NCBI GenBank assembly: GCA_043814055.1
Contig: JBDRKL010000010.1
Coordinates: 20,685 to 84,684 of the forward strand
DNA length: 64,000 bases
Direction: 5' to 3'
From: an archaeon
GTDB lineage: Archaea; Undinarchaeota; Undinarchaeia; Undinarchaeales; JBDRKL01
Shown: in pieces, positions 4,833 to 58,152 of the stretch
How positions within the stretch are numbered: position 1 is the stretch's first letter
Layout: each line of letters begins with the position of its first letter
The notes under the pieces: model-generated
Told to the model about the DNA's origin: nothing
What the model saw: the letters and a program-made list of their open reading frames with translations, nothing else
The model's database searches: none
Made by a program: the position numbers and the translations under genes

Positions 4833-5702
4833 TTATTTCTCTTTCTCCCAATTCTTGTCAATCTGCGCCTGTATCTGCGCAATCTGCTCTTCTGAAAGGT
4901 GCTTGAACCTGCGCTTCTGCATAGCGAAATAATCAGCAATCGGCTTCTTCGGCTCCGGCGGCTTCACAGTTACCCTGCGCTCGCCGTTCTCCTGCTCCCA
5001 CATCTTCCACAGCCCGGTCTCAACAACCAGGCGCGAAATCTCAACAGTCTTGTTTGGAGCCAAGCCCCAGCCAGGCACGCACGGCGCGTAAACCAGTATG
5101 AATTTTGAGCCCTTGTGGGTCATAGCCTTCTTGATTTTTGCCTGGAAGTCAGGTAAATATCCGATTGAGGCAGTAGCTACGTAAGGAATCTCGTGCGCAG
5201 CCACTATATCCGCGATTGGCTTCTTAAACTCGGTCTTGCCTTTTATCTCACTGCCGACCGGCGAAGTGGTTGTCCACGCGCCGAACGGGGTTGAACCGGA
5301 GCGCTGGATTCCAGTGTTCATGTATGCCTCGTTGTCATAGCACAAATACAAAACATCCTCGTTGCGTTCAAGCATCCCTGAGAGCGCGCCGAACCCGATA
5401 TCATAAGTCGCACCGTCCCCTGCGATTACAGAAACTGTGGTGTGGTCGTTGCCCTGAGCGCGGAGCGAGTGCACGATTCCAGAAGCCACGGATGCAGTGT
5501 TCTCAAAGAGCGTGTGGATATAAGGGACATTGAAAGCGCTTCTTGGGTAGTTTGAGCTTATAATTTCTGAGCAGCCTGTTGCGTTAACTATGACTGTGTC
5601 TTTTCCTGTTGTCTTGATGAAGTGCTTTATCGCAATGGCCATACCGCAGCCTGCGCACGCGGTGTGCCCGGATTCAAAAAGCTTTTTCTCTTTAGCTGCC
5701 AT
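4833..5702 (-). CDS. porB: pyruvate:ferredoxin oxidoreductase, beta subunit (TPP-binding)
   Basis: 289 aa. N-terminal GHTACAGCGMAIA, GDGATYDIGFGAL TPP motif, operon context with porA/D/G. Confidence 0.9.
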   Translation of the reverse strand: MAAKEKKLFESGHTACAGCGMAIAIKHFIKTTGKDTVIVNATGCSEIISSNYPRSAFNVPYIHTLFENTASVASGIVHSLRAQGNDHTTVSVIAGDGATYDIGFGALSGMLERNEDVLYLCYDNEAYMNTGIQRSGSTPFGAWTTTSPVGSEIKGKTEFKKPIADIVAAHEIPYVATASIGYLPDFQAKIKKAMTHKGSKFILVYAPCVPGWGLAPNKTVEISRLVVETGLWKMWEQENGERRVTVKPPEPKKPIADYFAMQKRRFKHLSEEQIAQIQAQIDKNWEKEK

Positions 5703-5703
5703 T

Positions 5704-5832
5704 TCAATGCCTCACCGCTTTCATCAGCTTTGAACACAATGAATCTCCAGCAATATTATTTTTTACAGTCTCTGGAGTTTCATTGTGAATGAACGCGAAG
5801 CTGCTTGACAAATTTACTGCTTTGCGTCTCAT
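5704..5832 (-). repeat. intercistronic element, copy B (between porA and porB); contains a 42-codon mini-ORF
   Basis: The ATG (5832-5830) overlaps the porA TAA as TAATG. It stays open for 42 codons to TGA at 5706-5704, 1 nt before the porB ATG. It shares the sequence blocks ATGAGACGCAAAGCAG, AGCTTCGCGTTNATTC and CAAAGCTGATGAAA..TTGAAATG with 14242-14382. It has an internal 16-bp hairpin. Confidence 0.7.
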
Positions 5833-6953
5833 TATAGCCACCCCTGGTGCTCTTTTCCATCACTTATCTTTTTCATCAAGCTGTTAATATCTCTCTTGCG
5901 CACGTCCTTGCCGCCGAGTCCGCCAACAAAGCTTGACATCGCGACATCAGAATCTTTCATCGCGTTCGCAACATCGGAGTAAACCGGAGGCAGCGCTCCC
6001 ATGCTGTATGCTTTTTCAAACACCACAGCGCCTTTCTTGCCCTCGAGTGCCTTGGAGATTTCCTCGTATGGGAAAGGCCTGTATGAGCGTATCTTGAGTA
6101 TGCCGTACTTGCTGTCTGATTCCTCTACTGCGTCGCGCGCGGTTCCGATTGTTGAGCCCATGCTTATGAAAATATAATCCGAGTCGTCCATATTGTAGCC
6201 CTGGATAAGCCCGTCCCCGTAGCCGCGGTCGAACTGCTTCTCAAACTTCGCAGCCTCTTTCTTGATGTTCTCTTTTGCCTTGAGCAAATCCTTGTGAACA
6301 TCTTCTCTAAAGTTCTGGTAATCTGCAGGCATTGCGTAAGCGCCCATTGTCATTGGATTTTCAGTGTCAAGCTTGACATCCATCTTGAGCTTTGGCAGGT
6401 ATTTCCGAACGTCCTCAACTTCTGGAATCTCCACTGGCTCAACAACGTGCGTGAGTATGAATCCATCCATGCAGACCATTGCCGGGAGCATAACCTGCTC
6501 TGAAACTTTGAAAGCCTGAACCGTGTTGTCAATAGCCTCCTGCGAGCTCTCAGAGTAAAGCTGAATCCAGCCTGAGTCGCGCTCTGCAATTGAGTCCTGC
6601 CAGTCGTTCCAGATGTTCAACGGCGCGCTCAGCGCGCGATTTCCGACCACCATTGTAATCGGAAGTCTCATTCCAGCTGCACAGTAAACTGGCTCGTGCA
6701 TCAGCGCAAGCCCTTGTGAAGATGTTGCTGTGAAAGTCCTGCCGCCTGCGGCTGCAGCGCCTATGCAGGCGCTCATTGAGCTGAACTCCTGCTCAACCGC
6801 GATATAGCTCTTTATTCGGCCGTCTGCATGCAATTGAGCAAGATGCTCTGCAATGTGTGTGCTCGGCGTGATTGGATAGCACGCCACAACATCTGGCTCG
6901 CAATTTGCCACAACCTCTGCCACTGCCTCGGATGCCTCCATGGTAATTTTCAT
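5832..6953 (-). CDS. porA: pyruvate:ferredoxin oxidoreductase, alpha subunit
   Basis: 373 aa. N-terminal CYPITPST block typical of 2-oxoacid:ferredoxin oxidoreductase alpha subunits. Operon context. Confidence 0.9.
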   Translation of the reverse strand: MKITMEASEAVAEVVANCEPDVVACYPITPSTHIAEHLAQLHADGRIKSYIAVEQEFSSMSACIGAAAAGGRTFTATSSQGLALMHEPVYCAAGMRLPITMVVGNRALSAPLNIWNDWQDSIAERDSGWIQLYSESSQEAIDNTVQAFKVSEQVMLPAMVCMDGFILTHVVEPVEIPEVEDVRKYLPKLKMDVKLDTENPMTMGAYAMPADYQNFREDVHKDLLKAKENIKKEAAKFEKQFDRGYGDGLIQGYNMDDSDYIFISMGSTIGTARDAVEESDSKYGILKIRSYRPFPYEEISKALEGKKGAVVFEKAYSMGALPPVYSDVANAMKDSDVAMSSFVGGLGGKDVRKRDINSLMKKISDGKEHQGWL

Positions 6954-7390
6954 TTGTCCCTCTGATTCGGGTATACTTCTTCCCTCTTTTTTATATTTCT
7001 AACCAGCTTTCCGTTTTTATCTATCAAGTGAGGATCTTCGTCTGTTTTGCCATTAGAATTAATATCTGGTAATGAGATTAAGAGATAAGTAATACCGCCA
7101 GTTCTCTTATGTAGGTACCTCGCTTCCTCTTCTTTAACATCAAAGCTCATAAAAGCTGCAACAGAGTATTTTAATTTGCTTCTAGCTGATTGGGTTTCTT
7201 CCAATTTATCTAATCCGTCATCTTGCAAAATTTGTGGTGTGTAAGGTTGTGCCCTATATTTTTTTTCTGGTGTTGAACCCAGCAAGCGCTCCTCTTGTGG
7301 CGTAAGGTATTTCAAATTTGGCCTCACATTTGGTTTTATTTTTCCTAAAAGTTGAATATAGTCACTATCAACAAAATCAAGCCTACTCAT
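6950..7390 (-). CDS. orphan hypothetical protein inserted between porD and porA
   Basis: 146 aa counted from the internal ATG at 7390, which forms an ATGA overlap with the porD stop. Its TGA overlaps the porA ATG (ATGA). It has no Cys and no recognisable motif, and is visibly more AT-rich than the flanking por genes. The track ORF extension to 7441 overlaps porD and is rejected. Confidence 0.6.
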   Translation of the reverse strand: MSRLDFVDSDYIQLLGKIKPNVRPNLKYLTPQEERLLGSTPEKKYRAQPYTPQILQDDGLDKLEETQSARSKLKYSVAAFMSFDVKEEEARYLHKRTGGITYLLISLPDINSNGKTDEDPHLIDKNGKLVRNIKKREEVYPNQRDK

Positions 7391-7665
7391 TTCTCTTCCT
7401 CCTCCATTTTGATGCACTTCTTCGGGCATTCGTTCGCGCATATGCCGCAGCCCTTGCAGTAATCATAATTTATCTTTGGGAAAGTGCGCTCAGCTGGCTT
7501 TTTCTCCTGCTCAGAGCCACTGATGCAATCCTCAGGGCAGTACAAGTGGCAGATTCCGCACTTGATGCACTCTGGTTCGTTCACCACAGGCCTGTGGGTC
7601 CTCCAACTGCCAGTCTGGTTCTCTATGCTGGTTCCTGGTTTTGAGTTTGGTGCGTTTACGCTCAT
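7387..7665 (-). CDS. porD: pyruvate:ferredoxin oxidoreductase, delta subunit (2x[4Fe-4S] ferredoxin)
   Basis: 92 aa with two CxxCxxCxxxCP clusters (CIKCGICHLYCP, CKGCGICANECP). Confidence 0.9.
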   Translation of the reverse strand: MSVNAPNSKPGTSIENQTGSWRTHRPVVNEPECIKCGICHLYCPEDCISGSEQEKKPAERTFPKINYDYCKGCGICANECPKKCIKMEEEEK

Positions 7666-8195
7666 TTTATTGAATTATAACACGCCTCTATTGCTGCCAC
7701 GTTCTTCTTGCCGATTTCGCCTGGGAAGTGGTGCTCTATCGCGCGCTTCAGCGCGTCAAGCGGCACGAGTCCTGTAACTTTTGAAAATGCGCCGAGCAAA
7801 GCGGTGTTCACAATCGGCCTGCCAATGTGCTTCATTGCGATTGCGGTCGCGTCCACGTTGTGCACGTTCTTCGCCTTCAGGCAGAGTTCAGTGTTGTCTT
7901 TTGAGCTGTTGATTATAACAATTTCATCGCCTTTTAACCCATTGCACACGTCCACGTCCTTGATGAGCGTCGGATCCATAACAACAACTATGTCCGGCTC
8001 GTACACGTTCTCGTGCACGCGGATTGGCTTGTCGTCTATGCGGCAGAATGCCTGCACAGGGGCTCCGGTGCGCTCCACACCGAAGAATGGGAAAGCCTGA
8101 GACATTGCGCCGCCTTCTGCTGCTGCGATTGCGAGAAGCTCGGCTGCGGTAACAGCACCCTGGCCTCCTCTTCCATGAAAACGTATTTCCTTCAT
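7662..8195 (-). CDS. porG: pyruvate:ferredoxin oxidoreductase, gamma subunit
   Basis: 177 aa. N-terminal IRFHGRGGQGAVTAAELLA signature. Overlaps the porD start. Confidence 0.9.
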   Translation of the reverse strand: MKEIRFHGRGGQGAVTAAELLAIAAAEGGAMSQAFPFFGVERTGAPVQAFCRIDDKPIRVHENVYEPDIVVVMDPTLIKDVDVCNGLKGDEIVIINSSKDNTELCLKAKNVHNVDATAIAMKHIGRPIVNTALLGAFSKVTGLVPLDALKRAIEHHFPGEIGKKNVAAIEACYNSIK

Positions 8196-8343: not shown

Positions 8344-8485
8344 TGGCGCCGGAGTCAGGATTTGAACCTGAAAGGGCCGAAGCCCATCCGCTTTCTAACT
8401 TTAAGAAGTTCGATTATAGTTTTTCACTATTGCTCACTTCTCAAAGTTTCGAGGCGGACGCGTTACCGGGTTCTGCCACTCCGGC
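8344..8485 (-). tRNA. tRNA-Ser(CGA), type II, with a ~55-nt intron at the canonical 37/38 site and encoded CCA
   Basis: Acceptor GCCGGAG/CTCCGGC, anticodon stem TCCGC/GCGGA with loop CUCGAAA, long variable arm GGGCTTCGGCCC, T-arm TCAGG-TTCAAAT-CCTGA, discriminator G plus CCA. The intron is about 8393-8447 and forms its own hairpin (ACTTTGAGAAG/CTTCTTAAAGT). Confidence 0.85.
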
Positions 8486-10884: not shown

Positions 10885-10949
10885 CGGTTTTTTTTCCTGT
10901 GTTTTCCCTTTTGTGAACTGTTTTATACTTGTTTGTGCATTGTTTGTGT

Positions 10950-12071
10950 ATGGAGAAGAGGCCTGTTGTTGAGCCGGGTGAGCTGATTAGGGCGCCGGCG
11001 CTGACCGAGGACGAGTTGCTTTCTTTTAGGGAGACTTGGGAACGCCGAGAGAGGAAGCCGAAGGTGAAGGGCATTGAGCGCTACAAGACTATAGAAGGAA
11101 TGCTCGGTCTGAAGAAATCTTACATCAAGGTAATGCTGCAGATGCTCGAGGGGGACTTCCCGGACATAAGAAGCATGGAGCCTGAGAAAAAAGCAAAGGC
11201 ACTGCTGAATTTCTTAAAGCCGACTGAAATCATAAAAGGCGAGCTGACCGAAGAAAAATGGCAAGAATATGCGAAACAGCACGGCACTTGGATACTCAAA
11301 AAGCCCGTGGGCCACCTTGACAACCACCCCACACTCCTCGCGCTGCTCAGGACCGGCTGGGGCAACTGCATGGCACGCGCCCTATTCTTTAGGGTGCTCG
11401 CGCGGCACATAGGCCTTGACGACAAGACGCAAGGCACCAGATGCAGGGTTGCACTGATGCCAGAACACGCAGTAGTTTTCCTAACCATAAATGAGAAGAA
11501 AGTCCTCGCAGACCCGACGCACGGCGTGCTTGGCAAAGAGCCAGCCCATATGTATTACCCCCTGAAAGAGATGTACGACGAGGCCTTTGAAGTTGAGGAT
11601 GTTTACGCGGTTTATTGGCTGAAGGCGAGCCTTGCAGAAAAGCCAAAGATTGGCGTGAAGTACTACACCCTGTTCCACAAAAAATATCCAGACTATGCCG
11701 AGTGCCTGAACAACAGAGGCATCCTGTACAAGACTATAGGTGAGCTTGGCAAAGCACTCAACGACTACAACAAAGCCCTCCAATTAAAACCAAACGATGC
11801 CGAGTGCCTGAACAACAGAGGCAACCTGTACAAGACTATAGGTGAGCTTGGCAAAGCACTCAACGACTACAACAAATCCCTCCAATTAAAACCAGACTAT
11901 GCCGAGTGCCTGAACAACAGAGGCATCCTGTACAAGACTATAGGTGAGCTTGGCAAAGCACTTGCTGACTTGAAAAAGGCATTAGCCCTTTTCAAGGCGC
12001 GCGGGCAAGAGCAATATGCAGAAATCGCTGAACTAAACATTATGGGTGTAAAATCTAAAATGAAACAATGA
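10950..12071 (+). CDS. transglutaminase-like cysteine protease domain fused to TPR repeats
   Basis: GWGNCMARALFF (Cys), PEHAVVF (His) and LADPTHG (Asp) resemble a transglutaminase-core triad. The C-terminus carries three near-identical 34-aa TPR units. Start set at ATG 10950; the track ORF starts at TTG 10929. Confidence 0.6.
   Translation: MEKRPVVEPGELIRAPALTEDELLSFRETWERRERKPKVKGIERYKTIEGMLGLKKSYIKVMLQMLEGDFPDIRSMEPEKKAKALLNFLKPTEIIKGELTEEKWQEYAKQHGTWILKKPVGHLDNHPTLLALLRTGWGNCMARALFFRVLARHIGLDDKTQGTRCRVALMPEHAVVFLTINEKKVLADPTHGVLGKEPAHMYYPLKEMYDEAFEVEDVYAVYWLKASLAEKPKIGVKYYTLFHKKYPDYAECLNNRGILYKTIGELGKALNDYNKALQLKPNDAECLNNRGNLYKTIGELGKALNDYNKSLQLKPDYAECLNNRGILYKTIGELGKALADLKKALALFKARGQEQYAEIAELNIMGVKSKMKQ
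11691..11962 (+). repeat. 102-bp tandem repeat, about 2.7 copies (encodes TPR units)
   Basis: Units start at 11691, 11793 and 11895 (GAC/AAC-TAT/GAT-GCCGAGTGCCTGAACAACAGAGGC...). They are nearly identical at nucleotide level. Confidence 0.9.
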
Positions 12072-13075: not shown

Positions 13076-14245
13076 ATGCAGGAAAATCCTTTTTCAGATT
13101 CAGTGCCAACGCACTTTGCCATAGCGGCAACTGTCTACACAAAGCCGCTCACCGAGCTTTCAGACACGACTAAATCAAACAAGTCCAAGCTCATACTTGT
13201 TACAGGCGGATACGGCAACGGCAAATCCCACGCGCTTGAGCGGCTCAAGAACGACTTGAACATTAACGAGAAGAAAAAGCTCGCAATATACTGCTCAGCT
13301 TTCGCGACCAAGAGTTTGCAGACAATTTACGAGCAGGTATGCTCTGAGCTTTCAAGCGGAAAGCTGAATAAGTTCGCTTACACCACGGACGGACGCGCGT
13401 TTATGACTAACAAGGGCATTCCATCCAAGATTATAGACATATTCTACAACAAGGAGGCAATCCGACCTGCCGAGGATATCAAGGCAAACTTCACCTACGG
13501 CAAGATTGTCGCGTCATCCTCTGATGTTATTCATTTTTTCTGCGCTCTCTCTTTGCTCGTGGACCAGTTCGTGCTGCTCATGGACGACATAGAGGAAGCG
13601 ACTACGATGGAGCAGAACGAGCGCAAGATGTTCTTCGGGCACATCCGCGCCCTCTACGACGAGGCAGTTAGAAAGGAACTGAGCATGATAGTTGTGATGA
13701 CACTCACGCTTGACAAGCTTGAGCTGCTCAAGAATGACCGAATGGACCTCTACGAGCGAATGGACAAGGTAATTAAGTTTGACAAGCTCTCCCCTAAGGA
13801 ATTTGAAAATATTATTGAGAAGCGGCTTGAGATAAGCGCGCTTGATGACATCAAGGTTGACAAAAGCGTAATAAAACAAATTTGGGGCTATTCTGACAAC
13901 ATCCGCGGAATGCTGAACATACTCCGCGACCTTCTTGAAGAGGTCTACAACAAGGGTGAGAAGAAAATCACTACAGTTGTGCTTCCTGAAAAAACCGTGT
14001 CTCAGCTCATAGAGTCACAGAAGATACGGGACAGCTACAAGCCTGCTGATGATTTAATCCTCAACATTCTTGAATCTGAGGATGGCCTCTCTGCAGAGGC
14101 AATCATAGAGCGCTCAAAGAAGAGCGGCTCCTGGATACGGCACCGCCTCGCAGATTTGGTTAATGATGGCGTGCTGCTCAAGGAGCAGGTCGCTAGGAAC
14201 AGACCTGCAAAATACATACTAAGCAAGGTGGAGAAGAAACAATGA
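13076..14245 (+). CDS. P-loop NTPase with C-terminal winged-helix domain
   Basis: 389 aa. Walker A is LVTGGYGNGKSHAL and Walker B is FVLLMDDIEE. The C-terminal LSAEAIIERSKKSGSWIRHRLADLVNDGVLLKE looks like a wHTH. The layout resembles Orc1/Cdc6 or archaeal-ATPase proteins. Confidence 0.65.
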   Translation: MQENPFSDSVPTHFAIAATVYTKPLTELSDTTKSNKSKLILVTGGYGNGKSHALERLKNDLNINEKKKLAIYCSAFATKSLQTIYEQVCSELSSGKLNKFAYTTDGRAFMTNKGIPSKIIDIFYNKEAIRPAEDIKANFTYGKIVASSSDVIHFFCALSLLVDQFVLLMDDIEEATTMEQNERKMFFGHIRALYDEAVRKELSMIVVMTLTLDKLELLKNDRMDLYERMDKVIKFDKLSPKEFENIIEKRLEISALDDIKVDKSVIKQIWGYSDNIRGMLNILRDLLEEVYNKGEKKITTVVLPEKTVSQLIESQKIRDSYKPADDLILNILESEDGLSAEAIIERSKKSGSWIRHRLADLVNDGVLLKEQVARNRPAKYILSKVEKKQ

Positions 14246-14382
14246 GACGCAAAGCAGAGCTTCGCGTTAATTCCAAAGCTGATGAAATAGGAGAAACTTT
14301 GAAATCATACACAAAATCCCTAGAAATTGATGAGCTTTGTGTTGATTCCAAAGCTGATGAAATAGGAGAAACTTTGAAATGA
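14242..14382 (+). repeat. intercistronic element, copy A (between the ATPase and Zn-ribbon genes); contains a 46-codon mini-ORF and a 36-nt direct repeat
   Basis: The ATG at 14242 overlaps the upstream TGA (ATGA). The TGA at 14380-14382 overlaps the downstream ATG at 14379. A perfect 36-mer ATTCCAAAGCTGATGAAATAGGAGAAACTTTGAAAT occurs at 14270-14305 and 14345-14380. Homologous to 5704-5832(-). Confidence 0.7.
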
Positions 14383-23253: not shown

Positions 23254-24399
23254 ATGGACATACTCCTGTCGCTTGCAATGCTGCTTTTCGCTGCCAAGAT
23301 TGGCGGTTTTATCAGCAAGAAGATAGGTCAGTCAGCGGTCCTTGGGGAAATTGTTGCTGGCGTCATAATAGGGCCGAGCGCCTTCGGTCTCTTCACATAT
23401 ACTGAGTTCTTCAGCACGTTCTCTGAGCTGGGCATAGTTTTTCTCATGTTTTTGGTCGGGCTGGAGCTAAACATCAAATCATTTGAGCACTTTTTGAAAA
23501 GGGGCGCCCTAATAGCCCTGGTCGGGGCTTTCCTGCCATACTTAGTTGGGATTGCAGTAGCATCCCTGCTGTTCCATTGGAGCGCCCTGCAGAGCTTTTT
23601 GTTTGGGGTCATACTCATGGCTTCCAGTGTCACCATAACAGCAGCAATCCTAAGGGATTTGAAGAAATTGAAAAGCCCGATCGGTCTCACGATACTTGAC
23701 GCGGCAGTTGTTGATGACGTGATTGGCATTACTATGCTGACCTTTTTGCTGGCTGTGACAAAAGCGACCACTTTCTCAATAATAGATTTTGGCGGCATAA
23801 TGCTAAAAGTTCTCGTATTCTTCATCGGCGTCTTCCTCGCAGGCCCGCAGCTCGCAAAGTATGTTATTGCGCTAGGGGAGCATCTTGACCTCAGGGTTGA
23901 GGAGGGGCATCTCTCAGTAATAATAATATTAATCCTAACCCTGGCCATACTTGCCAATGCTATCGGGCTCTCCATAGTGGTGGGGGCTTTCCTCGCAGGC
24001 ATGATTCTGGACAAGAGGCGCGTAAAAGCAGCCGGCCACGAAATATACAGCATGGCCTATGGGCTGTTCGTCCCTGTGTTCTTCGTGCTTATCGGGAGCT
24101 ACGTAGTAGTCGGTACCCTGTTGAGTAATCTGCCGCTAATATTCTTGATTGTGGCAATAGCAATAATCACAAAGCTGGTGGGCGCCGGGCTAGGTGCCAG
24201 GCTCTCCAAGATGAACTGGCGCCAATCCCTGATTATCGGCGTCGGGATGATACCCCGCTGTGAGGTCGCTCTCATCCTGGCACTTATGGGCACGACACTC
24301 CACATAATAGACACTGAGATATACTCCGTACTTGTCACTGCAATTGTCTTGACAGCCATAGTAACTCCAATATTGCTCAAGGCGGTCATGAGGGACTAA
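23254..24399 (+). CDS. cation:proton antiporter (CPA2, Kef/NapA-like)
   Basis: 381 aa with about 11 TM segments. N-terminal GQSAVLGEIVAGVIIGPS block. Confidence 0.85.
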   Translation: MDILLSLAMLLFAAKIGGFISKKIGQSAVLGEIVAGVIIGPSAFGLFTYTEFFSTFSELGIVFLMFLVGLELNIKSFEHFLKRGALIALVGAFLPYLVGIAVASLLFHWSALQSFLFGVILMASSVTITAAILRDLKKLKSPIGLTILDAAVVDDVIGITMLTFLLAVTKATTFSIIDFGGIMLKVLVFFIGVFLAGPQLAKYVIALGEHLDLRVEEGHLSVIIILILTLAILANAIGLSIVVGAFLAGMILDKRRVKAAGHEIYSMAYGLFVPVFFVLIGSYVVVGTLLSNLPLIFLIVAIAIITKLVGAGLGARLSKMNWRQSLIIGVGMIPRCEVALILALMGTTLHIIDTEIYSVLVTAIVLTAIVTPILLKAVMRD

Positions 24400-25067
24400 T
24401 GGTAAAATGGCATTCACTTTCTGAGGACGACACAATTGAAAAAATGAATTCAAGCAAAAGCGGCTTGGACTCAAAAGAAGCAGCCGAGCGGCTCAAGGTA
24501 TATGACCCAAACCTTCTTGAGGTCGGCGACAAAGTTCCTGCAGACGCGCGCATAATTGAGCAGAGCAACCTGCACCTTGACGAGGCAATGCTTACAGGCG
24601 AGTCAGTGCCGGTATGCAAGACTGCAAAGGCAATCAATAAAGAAAATGCAATCCTGGTCGAGCGCAAGAACATAGCCCATATGGGCACTGTGGTCACGAA
24701 CGGCTGCTGCGAAGCCGTTGTAATCGGCACGGGAATGAAAACAGAGATGGGCAAGATTGCAAAGCTGATACAGGATGTTGAGGAAATGCAGACGCCTCTC
24801 CAAGTTAAGCTTCGCGACCTTGGAAAACAGCTTGGCATTATAATACTTGGAATCTGCGCGGTTGTGTTCTTCTCAAACAAGTTCCTGCTGCTTGCAATTG
24901 CAGTGTCACCAATAGGCCAAATATTGATACTTTACGTGCCCATGTTCCAGTTGGCATTCCACACAATGGCAATGGGCTTGTACGACTGGCTGCTCATCAT
25001 AGCTGTTGCAAGCACTGGCTTCATCTATCTTGAAGCTTATAAAGCAATTAGTCTTAGGAGGAAGTGA
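24399..25067 (+). pseudogene. relic of a P-type (Ca2+/cation) ATPase reduced in frame to 222 aa
   Basis: It retains the Cation_ATPase_N-like start (WHSLSEDDTIEKM..GLDSKEAAERLKVYDPNLLE) and the A-domain block (GDKVPADARII...DEAMLTGESVPV...GTGMKTEMGKIA..TPLQ). It also retains one TM helix and the last TM region (YVPMFQLAFHTMAMGLYDWLL). It lacks TM1-2, DKTGT and the N/P domains. Confidence 0.75.
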
Positions 25068-32348: not shown

Positions 32349-33026
32349 ATGGTCAAACTATGTAGTAATGCGTATGCTGGGTTTTTTCCCAGATTGCTAG
32401 GCATTTTAATGCTCTTTTCCCTGTTATTACAATTGCCGGTTCTAGCAGCTGATTCCCCTGCTGGCACTTCGCTTGAAGCATCCCCGGGCAATACCCTTGA
32501 TCTTAGCCTTAACTCTGTGCCATACACCCTAACTATTACAGAAGTTGATGTCAGCTCTGTCACATTGACAATTAGGTCAGAAACTACCAAGATGTTCGTG
32601 AAGTTTTTTGACAGCATAACGCTGGACATTGATGAGGACTCTGTGAACGACCTGAGCCTTGTGATAGAAAGCACCCAAGACGGCAAATCGCTCCTAAGAA
32701 TAGAGGAATTAAATCCCAGTATCACAGAGAGCAGCAGCTTAACCGGCTCTTTAACCCAATTAAGCAGAAAGGCCATAAATACCATCATCAAAAAAGTGGC
32801 AGTACCATTACAGGGCTTGGACACAGAAAGAAGCGAGAGGGTATTAAGTAATGGGCAAGCAGAAGCTGGCGCAGCGCACACCCCAACGGGCATGATATCT
32901 TTGCTTGGGCTAGGGTTGAGCGCAGGCGCAGTAATCGGCGCAGCGCTATTGATAGGGTTGCTGGTAGCGATGAGGGAAAAAAGTTTCAAGGAAACCAGAG
33001 AAGGCAGGACGGGGGGAGTTAAATGA
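32349..33026 (+). CDS. secreted protein with a C-terminal membrane anchor
   Basis: 225 aa from ATG 32349. Signal peptide LGILMLFSLLLQLPVLAADS. C-terminal PTGMISLLGLGLSAGAVIGAALLIGLLVAMREK. ATGA overlap with the next gene. The upstream extension to 32214 overlaps nob1 and is rejected. Confidence 0.6.
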   Translation: MVKLCSNAYAGFFPRLLGILMLFSLLLQLPVLAADSPAGTSLEASPGNTLDLSLNSVPYTLTITEVDVSSVTLTIRSETTKMFVKFFDSITLDIDEDSVNDLSLVIESTQDGKSLLRIEELNPSITESSSLTGSLTQLSRKAINTIIKKVAVPLQGLDTERSERVLSNGQAEAGAAHTPTGMISLLGLGLSAGAVIGAALLIGLLVAMREKSFKETREGRTGGVK

Positions 33027-35209
33027 GGCAGGAAGGCGCGCTACAGGTGCTACTTACGCTAATTGCCCTGATTTTTTTCAGCATGGTGGTTCAAGGCGCT
33101 TTTGCAGCTTCTTACACTGTTCGGGTTGAGGATGCCGCCCTCACTACTGATGTCTATAAGCAGCCTGGTGACTTTGTTAATATTGTAATATGGGCTTCTT
33201 CTTCTGGCTCGGCTTCGCTCTCATATAACAATGATTTGAAGCTGGTGGGCGGCGATTCCAATAGTGTATCTTTGTCTTTGGGCAGGAATGTACTGAAATT
33301 TTATATCCCTGAAGATGCGGATACCGGCTTTTATTCCGTGACTGTTGGCTCAACCACTGTGAGCTTTAAAGTCATTACAAATCCTTCGCTGATTATTATT
33401 ACACACCGCAACAGGCTTTTTCAGCGGTATGGTCAGAACTCAAACAGCCAGAGCGGCACTGTAATTTCTCTTTTGGCAAAGGCGTATGAAAAGGCCGACG
33501 ATGGCAACGGCATTGTGTATGACCTCGGCAATTTTGATTCCATGCCTGAATACCTCTGGAGCTCTTATTCCCAATATTCAGAGGAGCCGCTTTCCCCTGA
33601 AGAACTTGACAATTCCTATGCCGTAAGCGCAGGCATTTTCGTGCAGAGCAGGTGCAAGGCGCCAAACTGCGAGAACGTGCTGGTCCTTGGTGATGACTAT
33701 GTCGTCCCGTATTACAGGCGAAGCGTGACAATGACACAGGGCTGGCTGTGGAACCAAGGGGAAGCTACTGAAACAATTTACACAGACCTTTCATATATCC
33801 CAACAAAACGCATGTACTTTTCTGACCTGGACTCGCTTTTTCCCGGCTCCCAAGTGACGATTGTCACGCCGAGTTATGTAAGTTCCGAGTTGAATAACCA
33901 GATTAACGACCTAAAGAACGATCTTAAGTCAGAATACAATGTGGTTGTTAACATCAAGAGTTCTTACAACCTTGCCTGCAATTCCTACCTTGAACTTGGC
34001 GGCACGTTGGTTACAAAAAACCTGATTCTGATAGGTAATGCTGACAACAACAGGGCAATCGCCTGCCTGCCATGGGTTGAGAGCGGGGAGTCAACGATTT
34101 CAATCGAGCGGAACGTGTGGGGCAACAAGGGCAGTGCGATTGTCTTGGAGACCGACGGAAAAAGGCTGGACAGCATCCTAACGCTGAGGAAGCTGATGGC
34201 AGAGCAGGACAAAGATGAGTTTGATTTTGGGAGTGCTGTTGTTGCATGTTTATGGGACGGAAAGTTTGAGGGCGAGCACCCGATGATGCAGGAAGTCAGC
34301 TGCAATATGATTCCCATTGTCGAGCTTGCACCAGACTTCAGGGACTCAATAAAGTGCCTGCTGGAGTCTGAAAAAACAACCATTGATGAGTTTGTCTGTA
34401 AAGTAAACCACTTTGCAACCTTTTATGATCTTGCCGGATATGGGGCTGCTTTCGTCAGTTTTGGCGCTGGCGGGGTGGCTGCCGAGGTCGGAGATACTGG
34501 CGTTTCTGTCTTGAAGGTTGGCTTGAAGAACGCCGCAGAGGGAATTAATGACCCCAAGGTTTTGAAAGCTGCGGCTGATTCTTTCGATGGGTTGTCAATA
34601 ACAAAGAAGGTTAAGCATACTAGTAGCCTGGCGGATATTGTGTACAAGAACCCTGCGAAGTATGAGGAACTAACCGAATCTTGGATTAAAATAATTTCCA
34701 AAGGGGACGGTGTCACGACCACCACTTTTAAGGCAATTGATATTGACGTAGTGGATGTTAAGCATTTGATGCCGGACAAGTTCGCTGATTACGCAGAGGG
34801 CGTGAAAATTGCAGGCTATGCCGATCCTTTGACAGACGGCGCAGGGGTTCATAAAGTGGTGAAGGCATTTAATGCTCCCGGAGTAGTCACGAATGTCATT
34901 GATCCGGGCTCTGTCGTTGTTAAACAGATAGATGGGATGGCGATACTGAAACAAGGAGAGCATATAGGACCTAACAGTGGGTTTGGCCAGGTGCATATGG
35001 TGAAAGAAGGTCATTATGACCAAATTAAAAATGCGTTTGGCCTTGCGGATAATAACAAGGCAGTGGATGAATTCATCCAGGAGGGGTTGGAGAAAGGGAC
35101 GAAGTCAGGTAATACGATCACTTGGGATGTACCCAACAATGAACACAATCTGAAAATCATTTTAAGTGACACGTCTCCCGGCAGCATTCAAATAGCTCGT
35201 CCCGATTAA
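33023..35209 (+). CDS. secreted 728-aa protein of unknown function
   Basis: Signal peptide LLTLIALIFFSMVVQGAFA. A middle region (IIITHRNRLF...VLVLGDDYVVPYY) is reminiscent of gingipain/C25-type non-catalytic subdomains. There is a Gly/Ala hydrophobic stretch near aa 470 and a distinct C-terminal ~230 aa. Confidence 0.6.
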   Translation: MRQEGALQVLLTLIALIFFSMVVQGAFAASYTVRVEDAALTTDVYKQPGDFVNIVIWASSSGSASLSYNNDLKLVGGDSNSVSLSLGRNVLKFYIPEDADTGFYSVTVGSTTVSFKVITNPSLIIITHRNRLFQRYGQNSNSQSGTVISLLAKAYEKADDGNGIVYDLGNFDSMPEYLWSSYSQYSEEPLSPEELDNSYAVSAGIFVQSRCKAPNCENVLVLGDDYVVPYYRRSVTMTQGWLWNQGEATETIYTDLSYIPTKRMYFSDLDSLFPGSQVTIVTPSYVSSELNNQINDLKNDLKSEYNVVVNIKSSYNLACNSYLELGGTLVTKNLILIGNADNNRAIACLPWVESGESTISIERNVWGNKGSAIVLETDGKRLDSILTLRKLMAEQDKDEFDFGSAVVACLWDGKFEGEHPMMQEVSCNMIPIVELAPDFRDSIKCLLESEKTTIDEFVCKVNHFATFYDLAGYGAAFVSFGAGGVAAEVGDTGVSVLKVGLKNAAEGINDPKVLKAAADSFDGLSITKKVKHTSSLADIVYKNPAKYEELTESWIKIISKGDGVTTTTFKAIDIDVVDVKHLMPDKFADYAEGVKIAGYADPLTDGAGVHKVVKAFNAPGVVTNVIDPGSVVVKQIDGMAILKQGEHIGPNSGFGQVHMVKEGHYDQIKNAFGLADNNKAVDEFIQEGLEKGTKSGNTITWDVPNNEHNLKIILSDTSPGSIQIARPD

Positions 35210-35222
35210 GCCTTAGCAATCC

Positions 35223-35693
35223 ATGAAAAACACATACAACACTCAAATATTGGATATAATTCCTTCGACAGTAGATGAAGGGAAAGGGCGGATTATAGAT
35301 GGTTATGTAAAATTAAAAATAAATGACATTGAATTTTGGGCTTTTGCTTTAGAGGATTGGAGAACAGGCAAATGGTCTCTGTCTATGAAGGGCTCCAATT
35401 TATCATTAAAACTTAGTTTTTTGAATCTAAACATACAAGCATCTGAAAAAAAGATTAAACAAATAGTTCCAATACCAAATCAGAAAAAACCCTGTGATTA
35501 CATAATTTATGGCGAAGTTGTTGATAAAGTGCCTTCGTCAAAACTTCCTGATAAATATGAGCGACTTCAGGTTGGATGTGGCTTTGTAGTAGGTGGTGTC
35601 AGTGTAGCTAAGAATCAATTCAAAATCGGCGACTACATCCAGGCAGAAGGCCGCTTGGACGCTTACCGCGTGAAGGAGGCAGATGAACTCTAA
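35223..35693 (+). CDS. hypothetical cytoplasmic protein (AT-rich gene)
   Basis: 156 aa with no signal peptide. It lies 13 nt after the upstream stop and overlaps the giant gene start by 11 nt. Confidence 0.5.
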   Translation: MKNTYNTQILDIIPSTVDEGKGRIIDGYVKLKINDIEFWAFALEDWRTGKWSLSMKGSNLSLKLSFLNLNIQASEKKIKQIVPIPNQKKPCDYIIYGEVVDKVPSSKLPDKYERLQVGCGFVVGGVSVAKNQFKIGDYIQAEGRLDAYRVKEADEL

Positions 35694-38600
35694 CCTAAAA
35701 CCCCCACTGCTCGCAGCACTTATCATAGCCCTGCTCTTGGTAGTCCCAGCTCTTGCACTTGAGCCTGACTATGAGTCCGCTGCAGTTGGCCGCATTGTCG
35801 GCGACACCGCAACGGAGATGGCATCTGTGCTGGACTCAGGCGATTTCTCCTTCCAGCACGCCACATTTTACTCAAATAACGGTCTGCCTTACTCGCCTGC
35901 CATGGACACAAAATATGTCCTTGGCGCGTATTTCCCCTCCCAGCTCACGTCCCAAATAAACGGCTGGAGCTGGTCTGACGTCAGCAGCAGCATGTCCTCG
36001 TGGAAGAATAACGAAATGTTCATTGTTGAGGCGGACAGCATGTTCAGCAGTGGCGACTTAAAGGTTAAGGACAGCCCCTATTATGGAACTTCTTACTTAG
36101 AGGCCTCAGATGTTTCTGGCTGGAAGTCCAGTTTTAGCGCAAAAGACCCTTTGTTTGTGTTTGATGCTGAATACGCAGGCCTGTACCTGCCAAAGAGCTT
36201 TGACTCAACGGACTCTTTTGTTGGTCAGCTTGGCCAGGACTCCAGCATAATTGCCCCAACTGCTGTGCCAAGCGATGAGTTTGTCAAGTCCCTGGTGTGC
36301 TCCATGTATTATTCTGACGGTTCTCTTGGGACTGCTTTCAGGGACGCAAGGAATTCCTACTATAGGAATGCTGAGAACTATGGGGAGCTGCCTGGCCTGT
36401 CCCTGATGTCCTATGAGCTGTACGGCGACCCAAGCGCCTCATTTTCCATGCCAGGGTCGCCAAGCCCGTCTGCAGTTGACCAGTATTGTTACCCCTACAC
36501 AGAGGGCGGCACAGTAAACGTGCCAATGGAGATTGATATTACCAAGAAAGGCGCTGTAGCTGATGACGAGGTCTGGAAGGTCCAGCTGAGCGTTGGCAAC
36601 ATAAAAAATCTCAGGGTCAAGCTAAGCTGGGCGCAGACCAATGCAAACCTTGACCTGACTTTAGTTGACCCGAATGGCAAATCTTATTCCCCTAGTTCTA
36701 CAGGCTCCTCAAACGAGGAAGTCACTGTATGGAACTTCGCCAGTAACCTGCGAAACAAGCCTTGGATAGTAAAGGTAACAGGGACAAATGTCCCGAGCAG
36801 CATTGGTTATGCAAAGTTTGATGTTCTAGCCACTTCTCCTTCTGATGAATCAGGCGGCGGGGGTGGTGGAGGCGGAGGTGGCGGCGGAGGCGGTGCAGGT
36901 GGCGTAAATCTCACATCCATAAGCCTCAATTACCTCTCAGCGTGCTCCCCTGAAAATGGTCTGACTTTTGTAATCAAGGGGACAAAGGCAGGCGAGGGGG
37001 ATGAAATCATAGTAAACCCGGACCAGGCAGCAGGGGAAGCCTTGAAGTATTTCAAGACCGGTCTTGTGATACCAAATTATGCGCAGTGGATTACAATGGA
37101 CTTCAAGCCAGGGCACTTGGACTGGGACAACTGCGGAACTGTTGAAAGAGTTGACCCTATCTTCAGGCAGACTGAGGTCGCCCGCGTCATGTTCGACGCC
37201 GACGTGAAATTAAAGTTTGATGAGTTCGGCTCTGTTTCCGAGACTCTCCAAAAAGAGATGCGGCAGTATTGGATTGATGACATACAAGCAGGGCCGTATT
37301 GGAGCGAACTGTCTGCCAAAGGCTTCAATGAATTCCCTGATTACAAAAGGCGCGCATATATTCATCCAGCGGCATTTGAGGTAAATGGAAGCGGCTGTAA
37401 TATATTCATATCCGAGGCAAAGATGAATGTAACGCATGTGTTTGACTGGGTTGTCCTGGATACTGCGAGATATAGCCTAAGCCCTGAGGTACAGGCCTAT
37501 TTGGACCAGCGCCTTGAGAACTGGGAAAATGTTTTCCAGATGCGGCAGGAAACTGAGCTTGTTTCCAAGCATCTTGAGTCATTAAACAACGATCCAAAGT
37601 ATGCAGAAATGAGGCGGGTCTACACCGCATTGGCGCTTGTACAATGGTACAAACAACAGGACAGGAGCAAGATACCATTTGGAGATATCATTGACTCAAA
37701 CAACATAAGCGGCTTGGAGTCAGACCCCCTATTTGACCAGAGCTATTGGGATGCGCAGGCTTGTCAATTCATGTTCACGACTCCAATGCCATGCGGCTTC
37801 TATGGCGGAACCTGCAACTGGGACTTCGGCGGAGGGGTCTCTCTTGGCTCTGTCCCGCCGGACGTGCTCGGCGAGCTTGACGGGCAGATAAGTGAGCTGA
37901 TGTCAGAGGCAATCACTGCGCCGTATGTGCAGGAGGGGAACGATTATTATTTTGGCGGGGAGATTGTGGCAAACGAGCCTGACCTAAAGCCTGTTGGCAT
38001 GGGCTTTTCCGAGCTATCTCCTGCCACGCAGGAAACCATCAACATAACTGCGGATCTAGCCAATACAGGGCGCACTGGTTCAGCCGGATTCACAGCAAGG
38101 TTCTATGACAAGTACACGTATCCAAATGGTCATGTGGCTGCGTATTTGATTGGGGATGCTAGCGCTCCGCCGCTTGATGCAGGCGCTTCTGAAGCAGTAT
38201 CAGTCAGCTGGAGCACCGGGGATCTCCTGGGTACACATGAAATTTACGTGAAGGTAGACTACAATGGCGAGGTTGATGAATCCAATGAGCTGAACAACCT
38301 GTTAATCAAGGAACTTGCTGTGGTTGACCCTAACCCAACAGCAATGATAATGTATCCTAAAAACGGGGCTGGTTTTTCACAAGGGAGCATTGTGGCTTTA
38401 TCTGGCATAGGAAGTGATGAGCAGGACGGTTTCCTCCCAGAGTCCTCAATTGGGTGGAGCTCAAGCATTGATGGTGGGCTGGGCACAGGATTCCGCCTGG
38501 AGCTTTCCAACTTGTCAGCAGGAACTCATACTATAACCCTGACTGTAACTGACAGCACGGGATTGCGGGATTCAAAGCAGGTGGCATTAACTATCTACAA

Positions 38601-41600
38601 GCCTGATTATCCCCGGGTTTTATTGAGCTCGCCAACAGAAGGGCAGAAGTTTGCAGAGGGTGAGCTAGTATATTTCACTGGCTCTGCTTTTGACCCTGAG
38701 GACGGCGTACTGCCTGATTCTTCACTTGCCTGGAGCTCCAGCATTGATGGCGAATTAGGAACGGGAAAATCAATAATGAGTACAGGCCTGTCAGTTGGTA
38801 CTCACATCATAACTCTCTCAGCCACGGACAGTAGCAGCTTAACATCAACTGCTAACACCAGCATAGTGGTAGAGGAAGGCAGCCCGGTTGCAAGCATTGC
38901 CTCTCCTGCGAGCGGCAACAAGTACTTTCAGGAGAAAGACATATCATTCAACGGCTCTGGCTCTGACCTGCAGGACGGCTCACTGCCAGGAAGCTCCCTT
39001 TCATGGTTATCCAGTAGTGACGGATATCTTGGTCTGGGAGCTACAATCTCCAAAGCTCTGACAAGCGGCACGCATGTAATCACACTCACTGCCACTGACA
39101 GCCACGGCCTTACTGGCACAAGCCAGGCAACCATCGAGGTGCTCCCGCCTGGCTACGCATACTCCTCTATAATGTCGCCGCGCAGCGGACAGGAGTTCAT
39201 ACATGGAAGCACTATAACATTCACAGCAAGCGGAGAGGGTGCGCAGGGGTCTTTACCAAGTTCTGCATTCGCATGGTCCTCAAGCATTGACGGCGCGATT
39301 GGAACAGGCAATTCATTTAATTTTGACTCAACCACCCTGAGCGTGGGAGAGCATGAGATAACGCTCACGGTCAACAGCAGTGGCGGACTGGTTAGCGCGC
39401 TGAAGACTGACATAAATATAACCCCTGCGCCGCCGGTCGCAAGCATTGTATCGCCATCAGCCGGTCAGGCATTTGCTGCAGGCGAAGATACCATATTATT
39501 CAACGGGTCAGCAGTTGACCTAGAAGACGGCGTTCTTGGCGGGGATTCACTCGTATGGTCCTCAAGCATTGAGGGGGGAATTGGGACCGGCGCCTTGTTC
39601 AACAGGACTAACCTGTCCGTAGGGACGCACAAAATAACGCTCACAGCCACTGACAGCGATGGAAAACAAGGCACCGCAGAAGCCAATGTTGTTGTGGTTG
39701 GAATTGGTGAAGCAACGCTAATCATATTCTCCGACGGCTCTGCAGTGAAGAACTTTACATTCTCATCAGCTGGGAGCCAGGTCGCTTCTTTGAAGATCCC
39801 GAAAGAGGGGGATGTAACTTATGCAACAGTGCAGATTGAGGGCAAAACTGCTGGGGGCTATTATGGCGGAGGGAGCCCCAACTTAGTTTCTTACTTTAAA
39901 TTTGAGGAGAGCTCTGGGCAAACCGCAATTGACAGCAGCACCTACCAGAATCATGGGCAGCTTGGATCTACAAATGGGACAGATTCCAGCGATCCAACTC
40001 GGGTAAACGGTCTTATTGGAAAAGCGCTGGAATTTGACAGGTCTGATGATTTCGTCAGTGTGCCTGATGATGACTCACTTGATTTCGGGACAGGAAGCTT
40101 TACTGTAGAGTTCTGGATGAAGCACAATACAATTGTCAGGTCCAGCGAAGCCGGGGACGAGGAGTATGCAGTCATCAAGATGAATTTCGGCAACCACGAG
40201 GGCTTTTATATCAGGATGGACCCGTACCAAAGCACAGCAGGTCAATTGGTTTTTCGAGTCAGGGATACCATACCCAGTACCACAGATCTCCATTCTCAGG
40301 TAGCACTTGACGACAATAAGTGGCATTATATCGCCTGTGTCAAAAATGGCACTTCATCACAGAAGATATACGTGGACGGGGTGGAGAAAGCCTCAGGTAC
40401 GCCACCGGCTGGCAGCACATCCCACAATCAGGATTTGTTCATCGGAAGCAGCCTCCAAGCCAACAGGGTTTGGGGTGGAATTATTGATGAGGTCCGCATA
40501 TCTAATGTAGCCCTGAGCGCTTCTGAGATTAGCGGGCATTATGCCCATGCTGTAAATTGGATTGGCTACTGGAATTTTGACGAGGGGAGCGGACAAATCG
40601 TGGGAGACAAGAGCAACAACAATCATAATGGAATGCTGGGGGCTTCAGAGAATATTGATAACGATGATCCTTTATGGGTGGGTGGGATTTCAGAAAGTGC
40701 ATTGGAATTCGACGGAAACAATGATATTGCTAAAATTTCAGCCGGAACCTGGGATGATTTTGGCAGCAATAGTTTTACAGTAGGATTCTGGGCAAAAACA
40801 AACGAATTATTTACAGACAGTATACATCTCTTGGTCCATAATATGCAGTATTCAGGGGGTCCAAATGCCCTTGGCTGGGACATTGGCATCCTAAAGAATG
40901 GGAGCGTGCTTTTGGATATCCGTGATGGGCACGACGAAGCCCAGGCGTATTCAAATTCAGTGATCAGTGATGGGACATGGCATTATATTGTTGGCGTTCG
41001 AGATGGGTCTTCTATAAAAATATATATTGATGGGAAAAAAGAAGCCACATCGGATTGTTCCAATGTAGACTCAACCAGCAATAGTGACCCCATAAGAATA
41101 GGGGGCAGATACCCGTCTGAAAGCTATTACTTCTATAAAGGTGCTATAGACGAAGTTATGCTTTGGGACTATGCGCTTTCTGATGTGGAAATCCAAGAGC
41201 TATATCCTGGCTCCTCTTTATCATACCCGTTAAACCCCAGCCTGGACGCTGGCTCGGACGGCAATTCTGAGTGGAGCTATGCAGGAGCTTTTGGTGCAAA
41301 GGAAACAACGCAGGACTTTCATAGCGAACTGAACGAGCACCTGCTGGCGTGCACGCCTGTAAACAACATGTGTACAATCCCACTAAAAGTGTCTTCCAAA
41401 TCGGCAGGCATCCTGGAGCTTTCCAACATCAGTATCCAATATTCTATAGTAGACAAGTATCCGCCTGTAATCCACAGCATAGTCATCATACAGAACACCT
41501 ACAAGCCAGGCGAGCTGCTAAAGATTAAGGCCAATGTGTCAGACAACGTTGAAGTGCAGCGGGTTGAGACGGCGCTCAGCAATTCAATAGTACAATTGGC

Positions 41601-49880: not shown

Positions 49881-49963
49881 CTATCTCCCGGTTCTTGTAT
49901 TGCGTATTTAGGTATTTAAAGGTAGTGATAATGCTTTTATACCTGAAATCTTTATACACAGTT

Positions 49964-57999: not shown

Positions 58000-58152
58000 G
58001 GGCCCGTAGCTCAGTCTGGTAGATCGCATCCTTCGCAAGTCAGAACCTAACGGTTCCGACACCTCCCTTGCGGCTTCGCTGCTAAGAGGTAAACGTTCGC
58101 AGGAATGTTTCGAAACAGGATGAGGCCTCGAGTTCAAATCTCGACGGGTCCA
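58000..58152 (+). tRNA. tRNA-Ala(CGC) with a 79-nt intron at 37/38; no encoded CCA
   Basis: Acceptor GGGCCCG/CGGGTCC with the G3:U70 Ala identity pair. Anticodon stem CATCC/GGATG with loop TTCGCAA. T-arm TCGAG-TTCAAAT-CTCGA. Discriminator A. The intron at 58038-58116 contains CTTGCG, complementary to the CGCAAG of the anticodon loop. Confidence 0.85.

Follow-up and report, generated by a model that had tools for sequence, protein, structure and literature searches.

A short archaeal repeat inserted at stop/start junctions, with reading frames that may preserve translational coupling

Introduction

Several families of 35–150-nt repeats, namely REP/BIME, ERIC, Correia/CREE and BOX/RUP, occur in the transcribed operon spacers of bacteria, where their hairpins can affect the stability and processing of the mRNA. 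They are palindromic over their full length or have terminal inverted repeats, and we know of none that provides a bridging open reading frame (ORF) together with a replacement ribosome-binding site. The IS200/IS605-derived PATEs and the REP/RAYT elements have a sub-terminal hairpin and no terminal inverted repeats, and insert 3' of a specific target. Rickettsia palindromic elements (RPEs) are short, hairpin-forming selfish repeats of a reduced, gene-dense genome that persist within transcribed and translated DNA because they leave its reading frames open; Rickettsia felis has 728 of them, 85 of which lie within ORFs (PMC1166351). Here we describe a repeat found in a 64-kb stretch of an archaeal metagenome-assembled genome (MAG), i.e. 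positions 20,685–84,684 of contig JBDRKL010000010.1 (hereafter the window; all coordinates count from its first letter). Copy B of this repeat separates porA from porB in the por operon, copy A separates an ATPase gene from its downstream neighbour and copy C lies on another contig. On balance, the sequences lead us to favour the reading that this is a lineage-specific, low-copy repeat that is non-autonomous, has a core of about 65 nt, was inserted at stop/start junctions and would preserve translational coupling through a bridging ORF.

Results and Discussion

Insertion Sites

The two junctions interrupted in the window, with their flanking genes, are as follows.

5832–6953, reverse strand: porA (Pfam POR_N and PFOR_II), host gene upstream of copy B
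5700–5832, reverse strand: copy B, 133 nt, from the ATG that overlaps porA through the porB ATG; relatives have no spacer at the equivalent junction
4833–5702, reverse strand: porB (Pfam TPP_enzyme_C), host gene downstream of copy B
14242–14381, forward strand: copy A, 140 nt, between a STAND/P-loop ATPase gene (13076–14245) and the 228-aa gene P0125 (14379–15065)

A first-pass annotation of the window, made from the letters alone, had reported a repeated cassette that splits porA from porB by 129 nt in an operon type that is otherwise compact. Both parts of this description hold. The spacer (5703–5831, reverse strand) is 129 nt long and entirely occupied by copy B, and in three sets of relatives the porA–porB gaps are −10, +4 and 0 nt. 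The nearest por operons are compact and encode PorB proteins that are 63–69% identical to that of the window; hits neighbouring these operons bear DPANN-type names, e.g. Micrarchaeota and Iainarchaeota. The related locus L143 has the same gene order as the window (tRNase Z, porGDAB, aminotransferase, PEPCK), and its porA–porB junction, TTTAAATGGCGGCC / GGGTTTAAATGGCGGCC, matches the inferred pre-insertion sequence TATAATGGCAGCT / GGCTATAATGGCAGCT. The element is absent from the por operons of the relatives, all of which have tight junctions at this place, and thus it is not an ordinary spacer that is present with unrelated sequence in all of them.

The second locus tells the same story. Homologues of P0125, a gene for whose product no function was recognised, overlap the upstream ATPase gene by 4 nt (P0140, 62% identity; P0142, 48%). 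The 4-nt overlap reads GTGA in L150/L151 and ATGA in L152, and synteny between L150 and the window extends for more than 12 kb. The sequence expected at the empty ATPase–P0125 junction is ACAATGAGAGCAACG. Since syntenic relatives have tight junctions, with a 0-nt gap at one locus and a 4-nt overlap at the other, copies A and B are insertions. Both are flanked as AATG...AATG, exactly at the stop/start junction of the relatives.

The genome is compact, with most same-strand gaps between −4 and +15 nt, and the elements have a GC content of 0.36–0.39 against 0.47–0.52 for the flanking genes. Neither A nor B contains a TATA-like hexamer or a sense-strand run of five or more T, and TATA-like hexamers are present in all nine other long spacers of the window. 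The motifs expected of a promoter or terminator spacer are thus absent from both. The elements therefore lie between cistrons and are presumably transcribed together with the genes on either side.

Copies of the Repeat

Copy C was found by exact protein look-up as the 42-aa ORF MFH1424856.1 (ABIG20_04240) on another contig (32.7 kb) of the same MAG. The genes on either side of it are MFH1424855 and MFH1424857, and the MAG also holds the locus tags ABIG20_03520 and ABIG20_03575. It was compared by protein, and DNA was compared for A and B only. Its product differs from that of ORF-B, the frame within copy B, at two residues (S11N and H42L; 95% identical). The PorB of the window is alone in its cluster, with 69% identity to the next one, which means that copy C does not stem from a strain duplicate of this locus. 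The family thus comprises at least three loci in two subtypes (A and B/C), all in one MAG. The near-identity of B and C extends to their non-conserved inserts and looks like recent copying.

Further copies were sought in several collections. An exact-pattern scan with CAAAGCTGATGAAANNGGNGA of 596 Gb of GTDB genomes, a collection that does not include the source MAG, gave 69 matches, all of them single chance matches in unrelated bacteria. A scan of JGI metagenome contigs with CAAAGCTGATGAAAN{5,15}TTGAAAT also gave 69 matches, none of which reached past the pattern. Scans of IMG/VR viral contigs with the 5' hairpin, the palindrome and the 3' block returned zero, zero and two matches, and both of the latter were chance matches inside coding sequence. 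A sensitive BLAST search of A and B against the 64-kb window detected no additional copy; a 15/16 match within metK (60838–60853) was judged to be chance. Lastly, a profile of the three small ORFs searched against 5.8 billion proteins returned the known three only.

Core Anatomy

The repeat consists of a 5' module, a variable middle and a 3' module. These parts and the frames that span them lie at the following positions.

5704–5832, reverse strand: bridging ORF-B, 42 codons plus TGA, the sole open frame of three; NCBI hypothetical protein MFH1424725.1
5792–5828, reverse strand: hairpin 1 (5' module) of copy B, stems as in copy A, with a 14-nt loop insert at 5803–5816
5735–5787, reverse strand: 53-nt palindrome of copy B, with 16-nt arms, a 21-nt A-rich loop and TT on either flank; B/C subtype only
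5700–5732, reverse strand: 3' module of copy B, with CAAAGCTGATGAAA, the Shine-Dalgarno sequence GGTGAGG, TTGA (stop of ORF-B) and the porB ATG; predicted unstructured
Within copy A, forward strand: bridging ORF-A, 46 codons; NCBI protein MFH1424735.1
14246–14268, forward strand: hairpin 1 (5' module) of copy A, 9 bp, −9.6 kcal/mol, z −2.45
14257–14380, forward strand: in-frame 75-nt tandem duplication in copy A, with units 14257–14305 and 14332–14380 (94% identical) and a 26-nt filler (14306–14331)
14349–14381, forward strand: 3' module of copy A, with CAAAGCTGATGAAA, TAG, AGGAG and TTGAAATGA with the ATGA overlap; duplicate at 14274–14305

The 5' module begins with the ATG that overlaps the upstream stop and continues with a 9-bp hairpin. 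The 3' module contains stop codons, a Shine-Dalgarno sequence 7–10 nt before the ATG, and the ATG itself, and is predicted to be unstructured (z ~0). Between the two modules, B and C carry the 53-nt palindrome, in addition to the 14-nt insert in the loop of hairpin 1, and A carries the in-frame tandem duplication. When the two B-specific inserts (the 14 nt in the loop, and the palindrome with its flanking TT) are removed, a core of 64 nt remains, and its identity with the first unit of A is 86%. The collinear blocks common to A and B are ATGAGACGCAAAGCAG (16/16), AGCTTCGCGTT, CAAAGCTGATGAAA (14/14) and ..GG.GA..C.TTGAAATG.

The first-pass annotation had centred on the long hairpin of copy B, described as 16 bp with one mismatch and a 21-nt A-rich loop. 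This hairpin is real: its arms (5735–5750 and 5772–5787) pair at 15 of 16 positions with 21 nt between them, it folds on its own at −19.6 kcal/mol (z = −6.9; 0/200 shuffles fold as well) and it is the top local inverted repeat of the 64-kb window. The imperfect stem reported for copy A can also be drawn, between CAAAGCTGATGAAAT (14274–14288) and ATTGATGAGCTTTG (14327–14340), with two G·G mismatches. The further claim was that the arms differ between the copies by mutually complementary changes, as expected for a conserved secondary structure, and this claim fails. Firstly, the middles are not homologous: local alignment of the A middle (75 nt) with the B middle (54 nt) gave no significant similarity (388 of 2000 shuffles as good, p~0.19). 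Secondly, in the columns of the B hairpin in the A/B alignment one pair was altered on both sides against 0.5 expected, and 247 of 500 shuffles reached one, in a covariation test whose power with two DNA sequences is very low. Lastly, when both copies were folded together with RNAalifold, a check that the same annotation had proposed, the long hairpin was lost from the consensus; only the 9-bp 5' hairpin was kept, with all nine pairs invariant and a covariation term of 0.

The middle of A is a tandem duplication of the 3' block plus the 26-nt filler. What was taken for a 5' arm in A is therefore a duplicate of the conserved 3' block, and in B this block lies outside the hairpin. Since the B-specific inserts can be removed to leave a 64-nt core that is 86% identical to A, the hairpin is a secondary feature of one subtype. 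As far as the sequences allow this to be judged, the B/C subtype acquired it as a palindromic insert of secondary nature, and it is not a conserved RNA fold.

Bridging ORFs and Proposed Translational Coupling

The frame that starts at the overlapping ATG is the only one that is open in both copies, and shuffled interiors keep it open in 3–4% of trials (4.4% for ORF-B). ORF-B translates as MRRKAVNLSSSFAFIHNETPETVKNNIAGDSLCSKLMKAVRH. As described in the first-pass annotation, its ATG (5832–5830) shares its A with the TAA of porA (TAATG), the frame runs for 42 codons and a single nucleotide separates the TGA (5706–5704) from the porB ATG. A and B use different frames through the conserved 3' block, and both frames end at most 4 nt from the downstream ATG. 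The TAG of A that lies in the frame used by B is GCG in B.

The layout at the two ends is similar in both copies. In B it consists of TAATG at the start, UGA-A-AUG at the end and GGUGAGG 7 nt upstream; in A it consists of (C)AATGA, AUGA and AGGAG 10 nt upstream. A Shine-Dalgarno sequence also precedes the ATG of the element itself (GGGGTGG in B and GGTGGAG in A). Because this ATG overlaps the upstream stop, the element inherits the Shine-Dalgarno sequence that formerly belonged to the displaced gene.

According to one account of the process (PMC12548453; Huber 2019, 2023 as cited there), termination-reinitiation coupling in archaea needs overlaps or very short gaps. A bare spacer of 129 nt would for this reason break the coupling between porA and porB. 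The bridging frame could avoid this. Ribosomes that finish porA would restart at the overlapping AUG and read the 42-codon frame, melting the hairpins on the way. On reaching the UGA, which 1 nt separates from the porB AUG, they would terminate and then reinitiate at that AUG, aided by the GGUGAGG 7 nt upstream. One long gap would in this manner be turned into two tight junctions, and the insert would be tolerated inside an essential operon. The element would thus be a probably selfish insert that behaves as a translational coupler.

This predicted arrangement resembles that of termination-reinitiation couplers and of the synthetic 'bicistronic design' couplers. In these, as in A and B, a leader ORF begins at the stop codon of the preceding gene, or overlaps it, and contains the Shine-Dalgarno sequence of the next gene, and the leader stop overlaps or abuts the next start (ATGA in A, UGA-A-AUG in B). 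The sequences of both copies have the three features by which such a coupler would be recognised, i.e. a leader start that overlaps the upstream stop, a leader stop near the next start and a Shine-Dalgarno sequence inside the leader. Known couplers differ in being native junctions or engineered parts; here the same function is predicted for a repeated, inserted piece of DNA. If our reading is true, it shows a way in which repeats are able to persist in a genome that is very compact and probably of the DPANN type, where nearly all bases are coding and the genes of operons overlap, namely by landing on gene junctions and rebuilding the translational hand-over there. The element would then be a candidate portable translational coupler, already tried out in nature, for the engineering of archaea.

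Possible Mobility and Relation to Known Repeat Classes

The spread of the element is probably due to copying into AATG targets, either with a 4-nt target duplication or by an IS200/IS605- or REP-like insertion 3' of AATG. Its geometry would fit these two routes equally well. Like MITEs (miniature inverted-repeat transposable elements), it is short (133–140 nt), non-coding and found at several unrelated loci, although in low copy number (three loci on two contigs). A 5' hairpin in both A and B, and AATG at the left flank and right end of two insertion sites, might point to an element of the IS200/IS605 or REP type; no significant 3' hairpin was detected.

Several points weigh against the mobile, coupling-preserving repeat that we favour. 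Firstly, the first 40 nt and the reverse complement of the last 40 nt showed no significant similarity (p = 0.14 for A and 0.31 for B), and thus the terminal inverted repeats of a MITE were not found; inverted arms occur only in the inner 53-nt palindrome of B. Secondly, a Pfam scan of the ~55 ORFs of the window detected no transposase or integrase domain. Thirdly, AATG (in B) and AATGAGA (in A) are repeated at both junctions, but any insert that recreates the start codon would show AATG at both ends, so this is weak evidence for target duplication. The openness of the frames may in addition partly reflect shared ancestry, and the in-frame duplication in A reduces its frame to about 21 independent codons. 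Lastly, three copies are known, all from one MAG, and spread outside the lineage is undocumented because the pattern scans of the 596 Gb of genomes and of the JGI metagenomes gave no other copy.

Compared with the RPEs, the element shares the small size, the hairpins and the effect of keeping reading frames open in a gene-dense genome. It has no sequence similarity to them, however, and RPEs lie inside genes, become part of the host protein and occur in hundreds of copies, whereas this element lies between two genes, is present in three copies and carries its own start, stop and ribosome-binding site. It is archaeal and without terminal repeats, in contrast to the intercistronic repeats of bacteria. 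In common with PATEs and REP/RAYT it has no terminal inverted repeats, a hairpin near the left end and a left-flank AATG that equals its last four bases. No Y1 transposase was seen in the 64-kb window, however, the hairpin at the right end is weak, and the distances between hairpin and element end differ from those in IS608. An integron attC-like core (GTTRRRY) did not fit by eye, and a bulge-helix-bulge (BHB) intron was rejected by eye since the two junctions are direct repeats and not complementary.

From these comparisons, a variation on known intergenic repeats with an unusual, apparently coupling-preserving design is the best-supported description. A bolder one, which we regard as possible but rather doubtful, is a new kind of selfish DNA that has adapted to the streamlined genomes of archaea: a 'junction-homing' element that would specifically target AATG stop/start overlaps in operons and neutralise its own polarity by means of the bridging ORF, stops in the other frames and a replacement ribosome-binding site. 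Such an element would amount to a mobile bicistronic coupler of natural origin. It might descend from the gene family of ORF146, the extra ORF of the por operon that is treated below, since this family likewise sits at operon junctions beside thiamine pyrophosphate enzymes. The presence or absence of the insert could also serve as a strain-level marker for the lineage.

Alternative Explanations

The strongest competitor, which we nevertheless hold to be improbable, is a cis-regulatory RNA module, e.g. an operator for a protein or small RNA (sRNA), or a processing or stabilising site, that would have been recruited before porB, P0125 and a third gene for their joint post-transcriptional control and would be recognised through the 5' hairpin and the CAAAGCUGAUGAAA block. 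It would explain why blocks are identical across the copies (16/16 and 14/14) and middles differ, why the 14-nt insert of B is confined to the hairpin 1 loop, with the stem undisturbed, and why the conserved block is directly beside the ribosome-binding site; the alternative pairings CAAAGC/GCUUYG are repeated as well. These observations must be set against the structure predictions. The A/B comparison shows no covariation, the 3' block is unstructured and no Rfam family matches. The S11N change of copy C moreover implies a broken top pair in hairpin 1. No helix with covariation support, as expected for a riboswitch- or leader-like structured RNA, was obtained by RNAalifold on A and B, two sequences that give very low power. 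The distribution also argues against such a module: the sequence is missing at the orthologous junctions of all relatives examined and has no match in the large genome, metagenome and viral collections. The near-identity of B and C, with their non-conserved inserts included, looks like recent copying and not like selection for a motif.

The ORF146 of the por operon suggests another origin. The upstream part of the operon is arranged as follows.

7662–8195, reverse strand: porG, por operon
7387–7665, reverse strand: porD, por operon
6950–7390, reverse strand: ORF146 (P0124), an extra 146-codon ORF between porD and porA

The repeats could be what is left, after decay and internal deletion, of a small gene family that colonises operon junctions, possibly that of ORF146, in which gene start and end were kept for the coupling of the neighbours. 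ORF146 is itself inserted in the same operon, has ATGA overlaps at both ends and a GC content of 0.38. There is an in-frame resemblance between ORF-A and the C-terminus of P0130, a member of the ORF146 family (IGE..K...KS..IDE...DS(K/R); 35/49 nt identical), with a BLAST E-value of 3.8e-4 in a 93-kb database and a protein-shuffle p of 0.007 that is uncorrected for multiple tests. The family as a whole does not bear this out: its hidden Markov model (HMM) scores ORF-A at 1.5 bits (E = 25), ORF-A has no similarity to the ORF146 of this genome (p = 0.61), and three independent decays to one ~65-nt core are unlikely. The family also looks like a functional partner of thiamine pyrophosphate (TPP)-dependent enzymes and not like a selfish gene. 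Descent from such a family therefore seems quite unlikely. The HMM was also tried against the element ORFs in general and gave no significant result.

ORF146 is of interest in its own right. The 146-aa protein has no match in Pfam, PHROG or NCBIfam, and 13 remote homologues were found in 1.84 billion representative proteins. Their genes lie between porD and porA (L146), in tandem directly upstream of porA (L145) or directly upstream of a split transketolase (L147), and the por operons of three other relatives lack ORF146. Its conserved motifs are LTPQE..L.GS.P..Y and G.T..DP..VDE.G, and it seems to represent a family of small proteins, so far uncharacterised, whose genes accompany those of TPP-dependent enzymes. 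Within copy A, the middle (14286–14340) and positions 877–925 of L146, the 3' end of P0130 just upstream of porA, share the identical 10-mers AATAGGAGAA and AATTGATGAG at equal spacing, which may be chance.

NCBI annotated the 42–46-codon frames as hypothetical proteins, and they could be genuine small-protein genes: the frames are open, their start codon has a Shine-Dalgarno sequence before it and the proteins of B and C are 95% identical. Yet the amino-acid identity between ORF-A and ORF-B is only 29% although their DNA blocks are identical, A and B use different frames for the 3' block, neither of the two B–C differences is synonymous and no homologue exists among the 5.8 billion proteins. 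Since it is the DNA that is conserved, and not any one reading frame, a true small protein is very unlikely, and MFH1424725.1, MFH1424735.1 and MFH1424856.1 are probably not protein genes.

Finally, the first-pass annotation had speculated that CUGAUGA in the conserved 3' block, close to UUGAAAUG, resembles box C or half of a kink turn (k-turn) and could bind an L7Ae-type protein beside the porB start. The two motifs are indeed present, 13 nt apart, and CUGAUGA lies 13 nt upstream of UUGA in each copy (CUGAUGA-N13-UUGA). A UGAUGA beside the ribosome-binding site, in an RNA with little intrinsic structure, is also what is seen in L7Ae k-turn operators and archaeal C/D-box sRNAs (PMC6298567, PMC5539422), and the known L7Ae operators in 5' untranslated regions adjoin the Shine-Dalgarno sequence. 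Since such operators lack structure without the protein (PMC6298567), all k-turn drawings were enumerated, with a 3-nt bulge, tandem GA pairs, a C-helix (canonical) of at least 3 bp and at least one pair in the NC-helix (non-canonical), following the definition in PMC6298567. Copy A gave 9 drawings against 4.6 ± 3.0 in shuffles and copy B gave 2 against 5.7 ± 3.3, which is no enrichment. None of them paired CUGAUGA with UUGA and none was common to A and B. A partner GA strand with a C-helix could not be drawn at the equivalent place in the two copies. By inspection, CUGAUGA-N13-UUGA itself has no C-helix, since CAAA stands opposite AAUG and the two pairs nearest the turn are mismatched. The 3-nt bulge and tandem G:A pairs that known L7Ae sites have between C- and NC-helices are thus missing or not shared here.

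The hallmarks of C/D-box sRNAs, i.e. box D, a terminal stem and C'/D' boxes, are likewise either lacking or not common to all copies: no copy has a box D CUGA, B is without a second UGAUGA and a terminal stem, and B and C lack C'/D'. Rfam searches at gathering thresholds and at E ≤ 10 gave only noise, with nothing for copy B and, for copy A, a weak hit to sR12 that scored 12.2 bits where the gathering score is 38. A k-turn or C/D-box sRNA bound by L7Ae is accordingly the least credible of the readings, and the CUGAUGA motif, though present, appears to have no meaning of its own. The repeat therefore reveals neither a new conserved RNA structure nor a new L7Ae regulon. In sum, the repeated cassette of the first-pass annotation and its sequence facts stand, and the covariation and k-turn/L7Ae parts of its interpretation fall.

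Other Features of the Window

The window contains two matches to the full-length Rfam tRNA model, at 8347–8485 (reverse strand, 139 nt) and 58000–58152 (forward strand, 153 nt), whose lengths imply long introns. ARAGORN reported only the intron-less tRNA-Ile at 62680–62756. GC skew was uninformative as an indicator of replication direction since it merely follows gene orientation.

Two genes contain internal repeats. An ORF of 3227 aa (35683–45366, forward strand) presumably encodes a giant surface protein and has repeat units of ~276 nt (direct-repeat families D2 and D3, ~38.4–39.7 kb, with more at ~41.5–44.9 kb); the neighbouring ORFs 33023–35209 and 45490–48498 have no Pfam match. Three tandem 102-nt repeats that are 83–86% identical (11662–11980, forward strand) lie in the gene of a TPR-repeat protein (10929–12071).

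A 222-aa ORF (24399–25067, forward strand) between genes for an Na/H exchanger and an Na/Ca exchanger matches fragments of P-type cation ATPases only (N-terminus, E1-E2 and C-terminus), and may be truncated or a minimal remnant. The S-adenosylmethionine synthetase encoded at 60082–61242 (reverse strand) matches S-AdoMet_synt_N, _M and _C and is thus a three-domain MetK. We take this to be the bacterial and eukaryotic type and not the usual archaeal MAT, which suggests a possible horizontal acquisition. Lastly, the ORFs 35223–35693 and 49874–50473 (both forward strand), the second of which encodes an asparaginase-domain protein, have GC contents of 0.37 and 0.34 against ~0.47 for the window and may be recent acquisitions.

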